Shown: piece by piece, positions 4,367 to 58,700 of the stretch | How the letters are laid out: every line of letters begins with the position of its first letter | How positions within the stretch are numbered: position 1 is the stretch's first letter | Origin: Octopus sinensis | Taxonomy: Eukaryota | Length of the DNA: 64,000 bases | Direction: 5' to 3' | Assembly (NCBI RefSeq): GCF_006345805.1 | Contig: NC_043002.1 | Location: forward strand, 11,036,001 to 11,100,000 | The notes under the pieces: generated by a model | Told to the model about the DNA's origin: nothing | The model's input: the letters and a program-made list of their open reading frames with translations, nothing else | Database searches by the model: none | Position numbers and translations under genes: made by a program

Positions 4367-4663
4367 GATCGAGCAGAAGTGACGAATGCATGTATAGCCC
4401 TACTGGTTCACGATAAGCTCTACAAAACGGAAGTGCTATCAGACAGACCCGTTTGTGCGATGAGCGGGGCAACGAAACCCTTCTGCTTGCACTCGTCTAG
4501 TGCCCGGCAATTGCTGCCTTGTGAAGCTTTGTCAAACAGCTTTTGACGTGCGTAGGACGGATCTATTTTATATGCGAATCTTTGTGCAGTCCTTTCTATC
4601 GCTTGTGTTGCATTGACCTCTTTTGTTTTGTGTTCGTCCCTTGTGACCTGAAATGTAAAGAGT

Positions 4664-15223: not shown

Positions 15224-15493
15224 TTTGAAATGTTTTTTCTAGTAGAACTGTTATATAAAATCTATTAAAAACCAACTCCTTCGAAGCTGGATCCAGGGAA
15301 TTCCTTGATTAATATCCCACGAAGTTTTCCTTCAATTGCACCGATGTTATCATTTATAAGCGTAGGAGTGGCTGTGTGGTAAGTAGTTTGCTTACCAGCC
15401 ACATGGTTCCGGGTTCAGTCCCAATGTGGCACGCCGTGGGACTGAACCCGGAACCATGTGATTGGTAAGCAAACTACTTACCACACAGCCACT
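15224..15493 (+). repeat. Chimeric local duplication (copy of 8975-9072 joined to copy of 17420-17595)
   Basis: Direct match to both donors, with 4-bp CACG microhomology at the junction (15318-15321). Confidence 0.9.
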
Positions 15494-16410: not shown

Positions 16411-17459
16411 TCCTAATTTGTTTAATTTCAGCCTCAGTTAACCTTTTATTCTTAATGATGTCTCAACATACATTATTTAGTTTATTTGCGCTTAAATATT
16501 TGCGTACTTCATTGCCTACTAAGTTTCTCCATGAAGTGTATGTTTGTACAATGAGGTGATTGTTTGGGTTCCGTTGGACTGTATAGAAAGCTTTCAACAC
16601 ATCTCTATAATCCTTTCTAGTCCATTTTATGCATTTTGGTTTAGGTTGTGGTTTTGCTGGTGTCCTTATAGGCCTAGGATTAGGCTTATCCTGGTTCTAG
16701 TTACCTAGTAGTTCGTTCTTTTTGTTGGGGTTTTTTTTTTTAGAGAGAGTTTGTTCCGGAAACAAACTTTTCGACCTCATTTTAGTTCCCCCCTGGGTAA
16801 CGTGGTCTTTATCCCAGGGGATGACCGATCCGGCATGAGCTTTGGTTTGTCATTAAAGCATTGAAGGTGACAATAGGAGGCGGGTCTGTTTGTTCAGAGT
16901 TGACCTTTTGACATGACACCTCTTCCTTGTTCTTCGAATTGATATATGTCTCATATCGTAGGCTGATAGATCGGAAATCGCCTCCATCTTTTTTTGGTAG
17001 CTATGTTTCCGGGTATAACTGTTTGCTGATGTTTTAAACTGAGTGACCAATTTGTTCCTTTTTATATTTGTTTGTGGGAAGTTGCTTTCTTTTATTTGAT
17101 TCGGCGTCGCTCGTGACACGTATTTTTCTTTTATTTTCTCTACGCGTACGTGTTTGTCGTGTAGGCATTATTTACGTTGCTTGTAAATATCAGCATGTGC
17201 ACATGGATGTGTGGACAGTTGCATGTATAGGTAATTATTCAATGTACAAACTTACTGTGTAATCGGTGTATTTTCCAGGGTTCGTGGTGCTGGTTTCGAA
17301 GTCTTGCGTATGTCACATGAGATATCGCGCGTTTAAGAAAGAAACTACGCTGTATCTAACAAAAATCTTTCCGATTTTTTTGCTCCTTTGCTTTAACAGA
17401 ACTTTTTCTACAGTTGTATCACGAAGTTTTCCTTCAATTGCACCGATGTTATCATTTAT

Positions 17460-18110
17460 AAGCGTAGGAGTGGCTGTGTGGTAAGTAGTTTGCTTACCAA
17501 CCACATGGTTCCGGGTTCAGTCCCAATGTGGCGCGCAGTGGGGCTGAACCCGGAACCATGTGGTTGGTAAGCAAACTACTTACCACACCGCCACTCCTAC
17601 GCCAATGAGTGTTGTCGGAGTTTCTACTATTCATGTGTACGTAAGAACAGTTTTAACATCTCTTAACTCTTTACTCTTTTACTCTTTTACTTGTTTCAGT
17701 CTTTTGACTGTGGCCACGCTGGAGCACCGCCTTTAGTCGAGCAAATCGACCTCAGGACTTATTCTTTGTAAGCCTAGTACTTATTCTATCGGCGTCTTCT
17801 ACTATAGCCTCGGGCTGACTAAAGCCTTGTGGATTTGGTAGACGAAAACTGAAAGAAGCTCGTCGTATATATGTATATATACATGTTTGTGTGTGTATAT
17901 GTTTATGTGTCTGTGTTTGTCCCCCAACATCGTTTGACAACCGATGCTGGTGTGCTTACGTCCCCGTAACTTAGCAGTTCAGAAAAGAGGCCGATAGAAT
18001 AAGTACTAGGCTTACAAAGAATAAGTCCTGGGGTCGATTTACTCGACTAAAGGTGGTGCTCCAGCATGGCCACAGTCAAAATGACTGAAACAAGTAAAAG
18101 AGTAAAAGTG
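17460..18110 (+). mobile_element. SINE-B carrying an internal inverted, templated insertion (17534-17792)
   Basis: Head at 17460-17533 resumes at 17793 (GTCTTCTACTATAGCC). Between them lie an inverted head and an inverted copy of 19745-19927. Confidence 0.85.
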
Positions 18111-20930: not shown

Positions 20931-21039
20931 AAACCTTTTGATTGTTGGAAATGATCTGTTTCCCTGATTTAACGAATACACGACACAAAATTAAATGAGT
21001 CATAGCCATCAGATATTCATTTATCTATTTATTTATTTG

Positions 21040-21218
21040 TTTCGGTCATTTAGCTGCGGCCATGCTGGAGGAACACATTTAGGCGAACAAATCGACCCCA
21101 GGACTTATTCTTACTTATTCTTTGTAAGCCTAGTACTTATTCTATCCGTCCCTTTTGCCGAACCGCTAAGTTACGGGGACGTAAACACATCAGCATCGGT
21201 TGTCAAGCGATGTTGAGG

Positions 21219-21274
<56 letters not shown>

Positions 21275-22242
21275 CGACGGGCTTCTTTCAGTTTCCGCCT
21301 ACCAAATCCACTCACAAAGTTTTGGTTGATCTGAGACTATAGTAGAAGACACTTGCTCAAGGTTCCACGCAGTGGGACTGAACCCGGAACCATGTGGTTG
21401 GGTGGTTGGTAAGCAAGCTACGTTATTTCAAAATTTTGCCATAAAGGCATTACAAAGAGTAGCTTGTGGGCTGGACAGAAACATTGATGAGATGAATGAT
21501 GAAAAAGGATGATATTGATGGGAGAAGACAAAAAACGCCCGCCGAATTTTTGCTTCTCTAATACATTATTCTTTTTTTTTTACATAGTAAACCTCTTACT
21601 TTAGTATGTAATGTTAAATTATTATTAGATTTTTTTTTTCATTCTTTTGCCTATGTTTATTTTATATGGCGACGTACCGTAAAAGATTGGCGACGTACCG
21701 TAAAAGAGGGAATACAAAGGAGTGACAGAGAGAGAGAGGAGAAATGGAAAGAAAGGAAGAGACGAAAACAAGAGACTATGGTACTACAACCAGCCAGGAA
21801 CAGTCTTCGCTACATTTGCGGTACCTGCCAGAGGAAGTGTTTGTCCAGGATAGGACTACACAGCCACAGCAGGAAACGTATCAAGACATGAAATATAAAA
21901 GCCGGACTAGACTACTTCATGCGCAACTCCATTGTCTCCCGAGACAGAAAGGATGCCAATACAATACCAATACTTTAGTATGTAAACCTCTCACTTTAGT
22001 TCTGTAGTTCGTTCTCAGTTGAGGCTTACAAACAATAAACACAAGACAAAACAACAGACTGAGGCATTAAACCTCCTACATTAATGTTAATACACAATAC
22101 GAGGCACTAAGCCTCTTAATTTTTCCGCCCCGCCGTCACCCGACCAGGCTTAATGCCACACTCAAGCACCTCGATGGTGCTAGGTCGGGACTTTTTGGCA
22201 AAAAGCGAAAAGCTACTTATCACACAGCCACTCCTGCGCTTA
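21040..22242 (-). mobile_element. SINE-B split in its head by a retroelement insertion
   Basis: Body at 21040-21422; remainder of the head (AGCTACTTATCACACAGCCACTCCTGCGC) at 22211-22240. Confidence 0.88.
21423..22210 (-). mobile_element. 5'-truncated ORF1-only L1/Tx1-like element inserted in SINE-B head
   Basis: 3' ~165 bp closely match 34755-34910. ORF end KSPDLAPSRCLSVALSLV resembles GPDLELEHCLREVYDLI of the 34-kb copy. Shared AGAGG..CCT hairpins. Confidence 0.75.
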
Positions 22243-24740: not shown

Positions 24741-27142
24741 ATGTAAAATAAACTGTGAAATATTAAGTATGCCGACGGCAGAAAAATTTGTAGGGACGGC
24801 AAAAAAGATTAATTTTGCAGCTGCGGCTGGACTGAAAAAAAGAAAAATTATCTGTTGACAAAAATGTACTAATGCAGCACCAAACCATGTTTTCAAAGGA
24901 GGGATACGACGTAAAAGCCACCCTCCCGAGTGAAATTATAGAAGAAGCGGCAAAAAAAAAATAGCCGTATTTAAAACTCTTGTTGTAAAAGAAAATAATC
25001 TAGACAAAGCACCAAAAGAAGCTATAGAAAAATGCCTACAGCCGATCTGGCAGAACATAGAATACCTGACCAGAGGCAAATGCTTTGCCACGCTAGTAGT
25101 GTATTTCAAAAGTGAAGAGAAAGCGAAAATACATTCGGTACAACCTTTGAAAACCACGGATTTTGTATTGCTGCCAACATACTTTGGCAGGCGCACGTCA
25201 ATGATCACGGTAGAAGATATCCCGCCAGAAATGAACGTATCATGGCTATTCCCAGCCATACTAATGAGAATAATAGAAATAACGATATAAGAGACCTCAA
25301 AAATACCCCAGCAGAACTGGAAGGGGCAAGGCCTCGAGGTCATTATCCAAGCAGCGCCTCAGACCCTGAAAATGATCACAGAGAACATACACCTCGGAGA
25401 AGAAACCACCTTACGGGTAATGGTGGAGGGGAGAAGACCCCGGTGCTTCAAATGTAGAGAGAAAGGCCACATTCGGGCAAACTGTCCTACCCGTAAGGTG
25501 GAGACGGCTCAAAAAAAGAACGCAGAAGACCGACCAGTAGGCTCCCAGCAATGAAAACACTCAACTAGCTGGGAGTGAAGAAGGATGGTCTACGATAAAA
25601 AGGAAGAAATTAACCAAAAGGAAGAACCCCAATCCCATCCCTTCAACATCCAGCTCGAACAAGAAAAAAGCTCCCTCAACAGACACACACACGAAACTCA
25701 AACTACCCCAACCCACCACTATTCACCAAAAGAAACACCGATATCTCCTCCTTCCAACCCTGATAACCTCCCCTCCCCTCCCTCCCACTCAGCCCTGAAA
25801 TTTCACCCCTCCAATCCCCATCCTCCAGTCCCCGATCTCTCCCCCGTATATCCCCTCCGTCCGGCCCAGAAAAATCATCCCTCCAGTCCTGGAAAAAATA
25901 TATGGCAAAACAAGTTACTATTAGTGGCAATAAATGCCACGAACGAACAATTGACAACTAGAATTTAAAATATTCCTACAGCAGAAATCTTCAAAGGACA
26001 TTACACTAAACGGATCTTTTCGGTTTGACCGGCAGTTTTTTTTTAATAATTTCCACGTAACTAAACACTTTTAAACTTCGTATACTGGTAGAATGTGTTT
26101 ATAAAACATATTTTTCTCTTGGCTTTATTGAGAAAATTCTATAGTTTGTAAGATATTTGTTGGTTTTTTCTTCAATTTCTGCAATTTCAACCAATCAATG
26201 ACATCTATTGAGGTGAAAACATTCTGTGCCGTATGGATATGTCCCTCGTTTAAGAAACAGATTGGGCTTATTTACATTTCTGAAGAAAAAAATATACCCT
26301 TCCCCCCACCCCTAACCCTAACCCTAACTAACCCTAACTCTAACCCTAACCCTAAAACAGATTGAAATGCAATAGATCGATACTAGGGTCATAATTATGG
26401 GTGACAATTTCATATGACACCGATAGAAAAAACTGCCGTTCAAACCGAATAGATCCCGCTAAACTTCCAGAAGGAATTATGATAATACAAATAGACGACA
26501 TAAGCCTTGTAATATTAAAATCATATTTCCTCACAGACATAGGCTAGAGACACTATGGAGGGATTAGCATTAGCTAAGGACTTATGCCAAACAACTGTTG
26601 TCAAGTACAGGAAGAGTACAGCTATCGACTGAGTCAATAGTAAAAACTGACCCACCGGATTTCCTACCGAAAGAAGGTAAGAATTGCTTTCCCGTCATTG
26701 TAGCAATTGCGAAAGAGGTGATTTGGAAGACGCGAATGAAAGGGTTAATAACAGGCATTTTTATCTCTGGCCCTGGCTTGGTGAATTTCTTCACCTTCCA
26801 CCTAAGAAAGAAAATAGGGTTAGATAAAAAATGCCTGTCTGCGAAAATGTTCCAAGATCGATGGAAGAATGTCGCACGAATGTTGCGTATAGATGGAACC
26901 GAATGAATACAACGCAGGATGAACCCAAAGCATCAGTGTTGAGACGGGGTCTCGTGGTGTCCGAGCATATCCCGCCTCTCCACTCGATTCTGTATTGTTG
27001 TCTTGTATATGTTATCATTCGAACTATTCATATTTATGTAAAATTTTTAAATTCATCTTTTTGTTAACTCATACGATAAATCTGACCCCATATCAGATTG
27101 TACTGTCCTCTCTTTGTTCTCCCCTTGTGGGAAATAAAAAAT
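24741..27142 (+). mobile_element. Internally deleted L1/Tx1-like element: degenerate ORF1, ORF2 C-terminal remnant and 3' UTR
   Basis: ORF1 from ATG 24769, frameshifted: LPTYFGRR..VEDIPPE..VEGRRPRCFKCREKGHIRANC (CCHC knuckle). 26598-26906 has AKEVIWKTR..FQDRW, typical of L1/Tx1 ORF2 C-termini. No endonuclease or RT. Confidence 0.8.
26012..26456 (-). mobile_element. TTAGGG-carrying MITE nested in the Tx1-like element
   Basis: GGATC...GATCC TIRs; 8-bp TSD C(A/G)CTAAAC; (CCCTAA)n at 26311-26355. Confidence 0.95.
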
Positions 27143-33857: not shown

Positions 33858-34998
33858 TAGGCGTAGGAGTGGCTGTGTGGTAAGTAGCGTGCTTATTTGT
33901 GCCTGGGCCACATTAAGAAAAACTGGGCCACATTAAGAAAAACTGTTCCCAGGACCAAGGTAAGGTCCTGGAGCAGTTAATAAAAGTAACGCTTATTTGT
34001 GCCTGGGCCACATTAAGAAAAACTGTTCCCAGGACCAAGGTAAGGTCCTGGAGCAGTTAATAAAAGTAACGCCCCGCTCCCCCATTGGAGGGAGAGATGG
34101 AGGCAGTCGAGGAGGTGGAGATCTCTTCGAAAAAAGGAAAGAAAAGAAAGAAGGTGGTCAACAATGGTTGCCCACCGAACGACCCTAAAGCAGCAGGAGG
34201 GGAGGAAGATCCTCCGAATAAAGCGGAGGTACCACACCCTCCCGTAGCAAAGGGGAGAAAAAGAAAAAAGAAAAAGAACGGGACATTACCGGCATGCCCT
34301 GAAACTTTGTCGGTGCGAGGTGTGCCACCGACAGAGAAAACTGTGGCCCCTCCCAGAGCGACGAGAGATGATTTTGTTATCTTCTTCCATAAGGGAGGGG
34401 CAATACAGAGCTTCTTAAGGAAGCTAGAGAGTCGGAGGGAGGAGCCCATGCCCTGAACTGAAGACCCGGATTGGCCTCCGCACGTGACTACGGAGGTCAG
34501 ATCGGAAATTGATATGTTCAGGGTGGTTGACTCCTTCCCGTAGGACCTGTTTAGGTTCGACTTCTGGGGCCCCGATCTGGAGCTGGAGCATTGCCTACGG
34601 GAGGTATACGACCTGATCAGGGAGGAAGGATAAAGAGGCTTTAGTGCCTGAATGTTTATTGTATGTAAGAGGCTCAGCGCCTCAATTTGTTATGGACTTT
34701 TAATTGTAAGAACTGAAGTAAGAGGTTTAATACCTCGTTTTTTTTTTCCTGTATAAAAAAAGAATAACGTATTAGAGAAGCAAAAATTCGGCGGGCGTTT
34801 TTTGTCTTCTCCCATCAACATCATCCTTTTTCATTATTCATCTCATCAATGTTTTTTGTCCAGCCCACAAGCTACTCTGTGTTATGCCTTTATGGCAAAA
34901 TTTTGAAATAAAGTAGCTTGCTTACCAACTACATTGTTCTAGGTTCAGTTCCACTGCGTGGCACCTTGGGCAAGTGTCTTCTACTATAGCCTCGGGCT
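33858..34998 (+). mobile_element. SINE-B (3'-truncated) split in its head by a retroelement insertion
   Basis: Head at 33858-33895 resumes at 34911. TSD AAGTAGC(G/T)TGCTTA. Confidence 0.88.
33896..34910 (+). mobile_element. 5'-truncated ORF1-only L1/Tx1-like element inserted in SINE-B head
   Basis: Knuckle remnant CLGHIKKNC, basic linker, ORF end at ~34633, ~280-bp 3' UTR, no RT. Internal tandem duplication at 33891-34072. Confidence 0.78.
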
Positions 34999-55704: not shown

Positions 55705-58700
55705 ACCTTTCACAACTCATACACACACACGCACCTACACACCCACTCGAAACCCCATCATTTGCCGATGTTCTCTTCGCCATAGACTGTGCACTGATAG
55801 AGACTGTAAATTCACCCATTTACCTGGAACAAAACGCTCTATCCCCACAAACTACAACACCACCACAACCACCAATATCTCAAACAAGGAATCCCCAAAT
55901 CTGCCGCTATTCCCAGCGAGACAGATTGTGTTTGCACAGGGATTGCCCCTTTACCCATCTCCCGGGGACTCGCCGGACATTTAAAGATAACCACTCATAT
56001 AAAAATAACCACAACCACAGTCACCTACAGTTCCCTAGACAGGAAACCACCTCTTTTTTAGCTATAATGAATCTAGCAAAAGAACTGGAAAAAAACATCT
56101 GAGCTATCACCCACCACCATCCACCACTATTACCCCACTGCACATGCCATTAAAAAGCAATCAATAAACAAACAATCACCAAAACAATTAAAAAACCATC
56201 CACTCTCGCCTCAACATTTTTGCTTAACGCCCAAGGCATCAGCCCTTCCACAATACACAAAAATGGAAGATAAGATTCCTGGAGGACTGGGTCGAGGCCC
56301 ATCCAAACCACATCCCTTTCTTCGTCCTCACTGAAACCCATCTTAGTGACCTCCACTTGGAAGCCGAGGGGAAAGTTAAAAATTTCAAAACCATTCGTGC
56401 TGATCGTGCTGGCAGAAGAAAGGGTGGGACTGCCATTTATGTCCATGATTCGTTCTCAACAGAAGCCATGAACATATTCCAATGGATACTGCGAAGCAGT
56501 CGCTGTATTCAGTCAAACCAACAACTTAACAGTAGTGGGCTCTACAGACCACCCCAAACGCCCCTACCATGCTTCAAGAATGCCTCAACAGCATAAAGTG
56601 GTTCATTCAGCAGTGTCAACCTGACAACATTTTAATGATGGGAGACTTCAACCTTCCCGGGGTTGACTGGTCTACAAACAGTCTGCCGCCAGGTTCTCTC
56701 TCTCAACCCCTGACAGAGAGGCAGTGGAATCGCTTCTTGACTTCATGGATGATTTCTTCCTGTCCCAACTGGTACTCGAACCAACGAGATGTCACAAAAA
56801 CGTCTTAGACTTAATTTTCAGCAATCACACTGATACTATCCACAATATTACAGTGGAGAAAACCCTACTCTCCGACTATGACATGGTTCTCTGTGATCTG
56901 AGATTTCACTGGCCAAAATGCAAAACAAATGTCATCCCTCCTGTTCATCCATTTGACACCATGGATTTCCACAATGCAAACTGGGAAGCGATCAATAATG
57001 ATCTTGCACAAGTCGATTGGTCCTTCACGCACACTACACACCACTAACATCAAAAAGTCCTGGCAGTCACTTGTAGACACCATCACGAACATATGTGCAA
57101 GACACACCCCATTAAGATCTGCAAACAAATCTAAGTGTCGAATCCCTAAAAATAGAAAATCTCTCATAAGAAAATTAAAAGAATTAACAAAAAGATCAAC
57201 ATGCTGAAATACTGTCAACAGCAACACACCAACCTGACTGCCATTTCGTCGCTAGAGATTAAAAAACATAAACTCCAAAACAACATGATGTCTAACATCA
57301 ATAGTCAGCGAAGAGCTGAAGAGGCCTGGGCCATTGAGAAGATCAAACTCAATCCCAAAGTGTTCTTTTCATTTGCAAAAAAACACAGAGTCACTGGTTC
57401 TACTGTTGGCCCTCTGATTGATGAAAATGGTACTCTTCAAGACAATGGGAGAGATATGCCAAAACCATGGGAGAGATATTGCAGAAACAATATTGCTCTG
57501 TTTTCAGCAGTCCTGATATGACTGATCTGGGCTGTATCAGTGATGTTACTCCCCAATACACTTTATAGGACATAACATTTGGCGCTCCTGATGTCTTAGC
57601 AGCAATAAAGGAAATGAAGCATAATTCAGCAGTAGGTCCCGATAGGTTCCCTGCTTGTGTCTTGAAGATGTGTCAAAACCAACTTGCACCCCTCTAGCCA
57701 ATCTGTGGCGGAACTCACTGGATGCTGGATATATACCAGAAGACCTTCTATCCCAGTCTGTCGTCCCAGTTTTCAAAAAAGGAAACAAATCGCTTGCCGT
57801 GAATTACCGTCCAATCTCACTCACCTCTCATATCATCAAGGTATTGAGAGGGTGCTGAGATCGCGTATGACTCACTTCCTTGAGAGTCATAATATGCTGA
57901 ACCCCAACCAGCATGGATTCCGTAATGGGAGAGATTGCCTGACGCAGCTACTGCATCATTTTGATGACATTTTGAGAGCCTTGGGAGAAGGTTCCAACAC
58001 TGATGTCATCTACCTTGATTTCAGCAAGGCCTTTGACAGGGTTGATCATAAGATCCTTCTGAGAAAGCTGTCCAATATTGGTGTCACTGGAAAGCTGCTG
58101 CAGTGGATCAAGTGCTTCCTGTCTAACAGAACCCAACATGTTGTAGTCGAAGGAGTCAAATCCAGCCCAGCCAAAGTCAGCAGTGGTGTCCCACAAGGCA
58201 CTGTGTTGGGCCACTTCTCTTCATCATCTACATAAATGATATTACTGACACCATCAAACACAGTAACATCAGAACCTTCGCTGATGATTCCAAGCTCCAG
58301 AAGGTCATCAATGGCGTGGATGACCGAATAAACCTTCAGTCAGACCTACTGGCTGTTGTCCAATGGGCGGAAAAGAATAACATGTTGCTAAATGAAGACA
58401 AATTCGAACTGATCCACTTTGGAAGGGAGGACGCTCTGAAACTCCCATACTCTCTTCCTTCTGGAGAAATTCTCATGGCATCCAACAACATCAGAGACTT
58501 GGGAGTAACAGTGGACAACAACATAAGCTGGGCTACACATATAAGCAGCAAAGTTGATATGGCCCGCAGAATGTGTTCCTGGATTCCCAGAACCTTCCAG
58601 TCGAGAGATTCCCACGCTATTATCCTTCTCTTCTCCACTTTTGCCCGACCCCGCCTTGAATACTGCTGTCCACTGTGGTCTCCCTACACAAAACAAAATA

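Follow-up and report, generated by a model that had tools for sequence, protein, structure and literature searches.

An ORF1-only retroelement of Octopus sinensis that prefers the head of a SINE and likely borrows the enzymes of a LINE inserting at the same base

Introduction

A stretch of 64,000 nucleotides from the genome of Octopus sinensis (contig NC_043002.1, positions 11,036,001 to 11,100,000; hereafter the window) contains two retroelement-like inserts, each interrupting the tRNA-like head of a SINE. A preliminary description, made from the sequence alone, proposed that they are ORF1-only, HAL1-like passengers which use a very high-copy SINE as a safe landing site. We asked whether such a family exists, how strictly it selects the SINE, and which enzymes could mobilise it.

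Both halves of this proposal have precedents, cited here from the accessible parts of the papers. Mammalian HAL1 is a non-autonomous element encoding only ORF1p (PMC5753468). Tx1 elements that target other transposable elements include Tx1 in Tx1D of Xenopus and, in crocodilians, Tx1-Mar, Tx1-8_Crp, Tx1-4_AMi and Tx1-9_AMi, with SINEU passengers (PMC4494074). Small-RNA sequences are targets of non-LTR elements as well (PMC3706591, PMC4640811): Keno inserts in U2, Mutsu in 5S and Dewa in a tRNA spacer (PMC4494074, PMC3706591). For R1Bm and SART1Bm, target-like RNA at the 3' end has been proposed to anneal to the nicked strand, and the SIDEs of R2 and R1 are passengers that share the site and duplication length of their partner (PMC7265360, PMC3414825). 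In the available sections of octopus repeat surveys L1-Tx1 is listed with no target named (PMC13282606, PMC8967140), and OR1 is the only octopus SINE mentioned in the corresponding part of PMC4824008.

Results

Two inserts end at the same SINE base

Insert A (33896-34910, plus strand, 1015 bp) is, by sequence comparison, a 5'-truncated copy of an ORF1-only family and is closest to loci L026 and L057 (84-87%). SINE bases 1-38 precede it (33858-33895): bases 1-24 of the host head (33858-33881), then the 14-bp 5' copy of the target-site duplication (33882-33895), which has one mismatch to the 3' copy. Downstream, the 3' target copy and remaining host head resume at base 25 and run to base 111 (34911-34997, plus strand). 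A motif at 33870-33880, read by eye, resembles the A box of type-2 Pol III promoters; a B-box-like motif, also read by eye, lies at 34942-34952.

The insert starts inside a CCHC zinc knuckle, in agreement with the knuckle remnant first noticed, and carries short internal duplications close to its 5' end. The C-terminal half of ORF1 follows (33896-34633, stop codon at 34631-34633), broken by frameshifts and stops. Near the 3' end are a 9-nt antisense match to the first bases of the target site (34868-34876; 4 of 1000 shuffles reach it) and a terminal hairpin with an AATAAA that spans the element/target junction (34886-34912), a feature shared with the autonomous LINE described below. There is also a short target-like stretch within ORF1 at 33976-33992, at the boundary of the internal duplication.

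Insert B (21424-22209, minus strand) belongs to another subfamily, closest to L010 and L003 (86-87%). It too is 5'-truncated, and retains the last ~25 codons and the 3' UTR. The 5' part of its host SINE head lies at 22219-22242, the 5' copy of its duplication (~9 bp, one mismatch) at 22210-22218, and the 3' target copy with the remaining SINE at 21034-21423, all on the minus strand. Within its 3' UTR a foreign segment of ~360 bp (21611-21972, no strand assigned) is bounded by 14-bp direct repeats; it matched none of the fetched loci and is probably a later insertion.

The two inserts thus end at the identical SINE base in identical orientation, as had been described, with proposed bounds that were exact for A and within 1 nt for B and with target duplications of the reported kind. 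Their common 3' block, put at ~165 bp beforehand, aligns over 175 columns at 95%, about 20 nt of SINE flank included. The divergence reported upstream of it reflects different subfamilies, but part of the difference in B is the foreign segment. The shared peptide motif PDL-x4-CL-x5-L is real in the DNA, but a stop codon precedes it in the L111-L114 subfamily. The ORF2 of the partner described below matches neither insert, as expected from the claimed lack of RT, but both are 5'-truncated and their lack alone is uninformative; the proof comes from full-length copies.

A large family with a single ORF

We searched the whole genome with the 156-bp tail (best 40 of 1547 first-look candidates scored, 30 loci examined) and with the body and ORF1 (best 150 of 9510 candidates scored). 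This confirms that inserts A and B are 5'-truncated and belong to a large non-LTR family with ORF1 alone, here called the half-element. Full-length copies measure 2.0-2.3 kb: a single ORF, at most ~425 aa long, lies between a 5' UTR of 550-720 nt and a 3' UTR of 250-550 nt. In seven of them no match to the partner ORF2 and no APE or RT was found, which bears out the ORF1-only structure. The footprint of TPRT is present: a fixed 3' end, variable 5' truncation and target duplications.

An AlphaFold model of the first 205 ORF1 residues (pLDDT 82, 22-row alignment) resembles proteins with tandem RRMs (Foldseek E 1e-4 to 1e-3, with low whole-chain TM of 0.25-0.35), and a CCHC knuckle follows the two RRM-like domains (Pfam E 0.004-0.006, below cut-off); a Pfam scan of a 177-aa piece returned nothing. 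The product is predicted to be an RNA-binding protein with two RRMs and a CCHC knuckle. Protein searches gave only one or two Octopus proteins as named relatives. A link between ZCCHC3 and Tx1, suggested by an Atlas lead, found no support in our literature search.

ORF1 dN/dS is 0.12-0.32 in 44 of 45 pairs (170 codons) and 0.88 in the single close pair, values biased downward because copies were selected by protein similarity; we infer that the protein has been under purifying selection. Half-element ORF1 is 24-33% identical (E down to 1e-24) to all local autonomous ORF1s examined and occupies a long branch of the tree, no nearer to the proposed partner than to others, which together indicate an old lineage rather than a recent deletion product. 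L1 ORF1p was matched neither by profile nor among the fold matches listed, and the half-element appears to have originated independently and not by descent from mammalian L1 ORF1.

Other short elements were encountered along the way. One type, seen at L177 (G000:C2, near 0.62 Mb) and as tails that lie upstream of both L289 and L290, likewise ends at the SINE target; its ORF1 is distant (25-35%) and its tail differs, and it is possibly another half-LINE lineage. A second short repeat (L175, L215, L285) has a 3' end made of a hairpin and AATAAAG like the local autonomous families, and its L175 copy is located at the SINE target.

Strong but not exclusive preference for SINE base 25

The target is a dispersed, high-copy SINE of ~400 bp, present in roughly 370,000 copies by extrapolation. 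Its head aligns weakly and locally to tRNA-Ala/Thr and is not called as a tRNA by ARAGORN or Rfam; the SINE is not assigned to any of the named families OR1, OR2 and OK. In the window, the first ~80 bases of this SINE also form head-to-head inverted dimers in two instances (15357-15493 and 17459-17603).

In 12 of 30 tail-selected loci the flank is the SINE from base 25 on (10 of 28 when the window's two are set aside), and the others mostly run into A(A/T)GTA-like sequence. Several of these off-target copies, 280-1290 bp long, have their own 13-17-bp duplications. An exact 19-nt tail pattern found 41 matches genome-wide, 25 of which lie within three mismatches of SINE bases 25-40 by hand count (23/39 without the window's two), with a slight bias towards the SINE since the pattern allows no G at the 16th flank base. 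For background we sampled 20 stretches of 10 kb at round coordinates (200 kb), which hold 27 SINE-type 16-mer target sites. The SINE-type share of short motifs there is 21/680 for AWGWAG, 16/109 for AAGTAG and 14/28 for AAGTAGC; from the first two, 3-15% of insertions would be expected on the SINE, and the loose-motif background overall is 1-15%. The observed 25/41 has a binomial P of 1e-27 against the AWGWAG and 1e-11 against the AAGTAG background.

Among 49 distinct ORF1-bearing copies (one duplicate dropped), 37 begin in the SINE 5' part, five directly after the tail of another family member and seven elsewhere. As for true tRNA genes, the target is absent from 27 distinct tRNA sequences (six isotypes only), with at least 7 of 16 bases different, and none of nine rejoined off-target sites contains a tRNA. 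Downstream flanks are therefore non-random genome-wide, and preferential insertion at base 25 of the SINE head is strongly supported. The targeting first proposed holds as a strong preference but is not exclusive, as ~40% of tails in the window's subfamilies are off target.

A candidate autonomous partner uses the same base

The top 30 zf-RVT loci yielded many L1/Tx1-like families, none with both the half-element tail and the target. The partner was found through the junction pattern, one of whose 15 matches was the end of an ORF2. This LINE is 5.4-5.7 kb long and encodes ORF1 and an ORF2 with APE (PF03372), RT (PF00078) and zf-RVT (PF13966) domains; its best PDB match is human L1 ORF2p (E 7e-49, vs 1e-20 for R2). 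By domain order and an RT closest to L1 it is an L1-group LINE, and from architecture and targeting it probably belongs to the Tx1 clade. No named Tx1 reference occurs among its best 120 homologues (unnamed or hypothetical), the cluster members or the tree.

Of 30 partner loci selected by ORF2, 20 run into the SINE body, seed included, and seven into the target and then another family member (six by script, L209 read directly); one more enters a SINE with a short deletion and two are without the native end. When 30 young loci were selected by tail, 28 continued at SINE base 25, one was in tandem and one off target. Both the half-element (25/41) and the young LINE (28/30) exceed the >20% one-flank-type criterion given in the accessible part of PMC4494074. 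The APE- and RT-bearing partner that was to be sought by 5' extension thus has a candidate, at the same SINE base.

By BLASTN, half-element and partner have only their last 37-38 nt in common (79-82%): the small hairpin with AATAAA across the junction. The junctions examined show no poly(A) tail. The same insertion base and similar tail suggest that the half-element likely borrows the enzymes of the LINE. As half-element ORF1 is no closer to this partner, some subfamilies may owe their mobilisation to older or sister LINEs. The window itself contains fragments matching partner ORF2 at 26574-26900 (57% identity), 57990-58208 (37%) and 4423-4584 (41%).

Several other LINE loci deserve mention. 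At L333:6859-7022 (G000:C15, near 29.05 Mb) an L1/Tx1-like ORF2 family has its end just a few bases short of an intact U1 snRNA sequence, in the one copy seen. Another young L1/Tx1-like family (L152-L157, L334) has its own fixed 3' flank, which gave no Rfam match, and forms tandem arrays with ~5.3 kb spacing. The LINE copy at L184 carries a ~190-bp GC-rich insertion in its 3' UTR that presumably resembles antisense rRNA pieces; it had no Rfam match at the gathering threshold.

Independent insertion and mixed trains

The bodies of young LINEs are 96-99% identical over 1.6 kb, and their downstream SINE segments average 90% (25 copies), close to the 87% of background SINEs (18 SINEs). Truncated half-element copies of 195-1630 bp directly adjoin the SINE 5' part. 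Varied truncation points and near-identical LINEs in diverged SINE flanks refute a fixed SINE composite, the reading that would have undone the initial proposal.

Insertions also accumulate in trains that contain both half-elements and LINEs. One (L228, G000:C3:166992000-167001900) comprises five or more family members, and a single private variant of the target recurs at four of its junctions, which is what successive duplications predict. In a tandem region (L193, L194, L230; G000:C27, near 6.33 Mb) partner ORF2 and half-element sequence are interleaved with several copies of a third ORF1 type. A search for the empty allele of L284 in four public contig sets gave no informative junction.

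Full-length copies carry a target-like 5' tip

To the seven copies collected earlier we added 5' junctions from young loci, 20 of 25 being fetched further and 19 reaching the 5' end. Family letters occur at 25 of these 26 junctions (24 by script, L287 read directly), and in 14 of 15 informative cases the 5' copy does not follow the differing local 3' target copy. From these cases, the element itself supplies the distal 5-8 nt of what looks like a 15-16-bp duplication. The claim that the SINE is no part of the element therefore holds overall, except that the short target-like 5' tip of full-length copies is the element's own. Of 41 loci with two junctions (a few of them mis-paired), 38 have the same SINE subtype at either end, while only 2 of 23 private variants seen in the 3' target copy recur in the 5' one. 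This is fewer than plain duplication of diverged SINEs predicts, unless most variants arose after insertion; either post-insertion decay or a longer tip would fit.

Full-length copies are on target in 43/46 cases vs 19/46 for truncated ones, or 42/45 vs 15/42 without five junction-chosen loci; three unresolved loci are left out, L031 and L129 were wrongly scored off target, and the two sets come from different searches with a different subfamily mix. We also considered whether extra-T variants of the tip are inherited, and rejected this: on a tree that is itself poorly resolved (10 changes, 26 rows) they form no cluster, and so probably arise at each junction.

An antisense copy of the target start in both tails

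The tails of half-element and LINE each contain a stretch of 8-10 nt that is the reverse complement of the beginning of the target, located ~43 nt (half-element) and ~80 nt (LINE) from the end (shuffle P 0-0.024, six examples). It was not found in 11 ends of other autonomous families. When the RNA is read through, the motif folds onto the target around the hairpin, at -13.6 to -23.7 vs -8.1 to -10.2 kcal/mol. Judging from the sequences, three pairing partners are conceivable for it: RNA made by read-through, the DNA strand that is displaced, and the 5' tip.

We scored covariation of motif and target in 52 of 110 collected ends, after dropping 29 LINE-type, 13 off-target and seven non-family ends and nine without the motif. 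Of 16 copies inserted at the second SINE subtype, 10 have a motif that matches this subtype and six go against covariation; none of 36 copies at the first subtype has such a match. Because of kinship the raw Fisher p is invalid as evidence, and correction leaves three independent pairs (sign test p 0.25).

Discussion

We consider it highly probable that an ORF1-only element inserts at base 25 of this SINE with the borrowed endonuclease and RT of a LINE using the same base, and the HAL1-like, SINE-targeting reading of the locus is supported; that the SINE serves as a safe landing site is conjecture. Mobilisation in trans is suggested by the shared terminus, the shared site and the mixed trains. 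In such a scheme, half-element RNA would be packaged by its own ORF1p and its terminal hairpin bound by partner ORF2p. The partner endonuclease would nick between the SINE A and B boxes, and copying would begin from a fixed start point without a poly(A) tail. The target-like tip at the full-length cDNA end, 5-8 nt or more, could then anneal to the staggered target end, favouring completion at SINE sites, while truncated copies would also be completed at loose A(A/T)GTA-like sites. Each insertion would regenerate the target, and mixed trains of half-elements and LINEs would accumulate.

Other explanations must be weighed against this one. The endonuclease might simply read a short AAGTAG or AAGTAGC, of which the SINE is the commonest carrier: off-target sites do share A(A/T)GTA(G/T), half of the AAGTAGC heptamers in the background sample (14/28) are in the SINE, and L027 and L256 are non-SINE insertions at AAGTAGCT. 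However, all 14 AAGTAGC-starting flanks among the 41 tails are SINE-type where half were expected, 28/30 young LINE copies are in the SINE, and the loose-motif background is 1-15%; we regard this as improbable. Less credible still, to the point of being nearly dismissed, is an old SINE-element-SINE composite copied whole, or a 3' SINE carried along by read-through (3' transduction). The family-typical rather than local 5' target copy of full-length elements speaks for it, as does the AATAAA, whose position across the junction makes read-through plausible. Against it stand the truncated copies that adjoin the SINE 5' part directly, near-identical LINEs in SINE flanks near background divergence, a site common to two unrelated bodies and many subfamilies, copies that have the tail of another element, not the SINE 5' part, in front of them, and off-target copies with duplications of their own.

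The role of the 5' tip is less certain. Insertion could be loose, with off-SINE full-length copies selected out or younger subfamilies being stricter, and the tip irrelevant to the site. The contrast between full-length and truncated copies is confounded by search and subfamily, shrinks to 4/4 vs 10/27 (P 0.03) in the group resembling insert A, and is breached by L068 and L083, near-full copies off target. Yet the tip is element-derived in 14/15 informative young copies, unlike human full-length L1, whose 5' junctions show microhomology at chance level only in the available part of PMC2912911; we see this loose-insertion account as possible but doubtful. Beside the preferred reading of borrowed enzymes, we put forward RNA-assisted homing only tentatively, with the sense 5' tip and the antisense 8-10-mer both pairing with the target. 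That RNA pairing is a real determinant of site choice, in addition to the endonuclease, is likewise a speculative suggestion. If true, pairing would track an evolving SINE, the tail motif switching with SINE subfamily, in a three-tier parasite chain of SINE, SINE-homing LINE and ancient ORF1-only passenger.

The comparisons that follow rest on the accessible portions of the cited papers. Like HAL1, the half-element is an L1-group element with ORF1p only, a long 5' UTR, 5' truncation and ~15-bp duplications (PMC5753468). Unlike HAL1, it has a predicted two-RRM and CCHC ORF1 related to local Tx1-like LINE ORF1s, prefers a site, lacks a poly(A) tail and is of independent origin by our reading. 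As with TE-targeting Tx1, an APE-type LINE prefers another mobile element and a non-autonomous passenger does likewise, but the targets there are DNA transposons and LTR elements rather than a SINE head, and the crocodilian passenger is a non-coding, snRNA-headed SINE whereas the octopus one is a coding half-LINE (PMC4494074). Site-specific insertion at or near a multicopy small-RNA-type sequence is shared with Keno, Mutsu and Dewa, whose targets are functional gene arrays and not a dispersed SINE (PMC4494074, PMC3706591). Target-like RNA and a passenger at its partner's site recall R1Bm/SART1Bm and the R2/R1 SIDEs; clades and targets differ, SIDEs are non-coding, and an internal antisense target copy, present in the octopus tails, was seen for none of them in the parts available (PMC7265360, PMC3414825).

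TE-targeting Tx1 and HAL1 are each already known. What appears new, and is strongly supported, is the combination of a SINE-head target with a long-diverged half-LINE passenger of an L1-group LINE. No LINE or half-LINE that targets a SINE head was present in the literature searched; entries for these families may exist in Repbase, Dfam, Repbase Reports or subscription papers.

The finding places a SINE promoter among the sequences that site-specific LINEs are known to target, and provides a non-mammalian case of an ORF1-only passenger that evolved independently and is long-lived. The LINE has young copies that are nearly intact and the target is abundant and naturally variable, which makes the system tractable; it could address how an APE-type LINE completes its 5' junction and whether RNA-DNA pairing acts beyond endonuclease specificity. 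Each insertion parts the A and B boxes of a SINE by 0.2-5 kb and would probably silence the copy it hits, which may make the LINE a parasite of the SINE.
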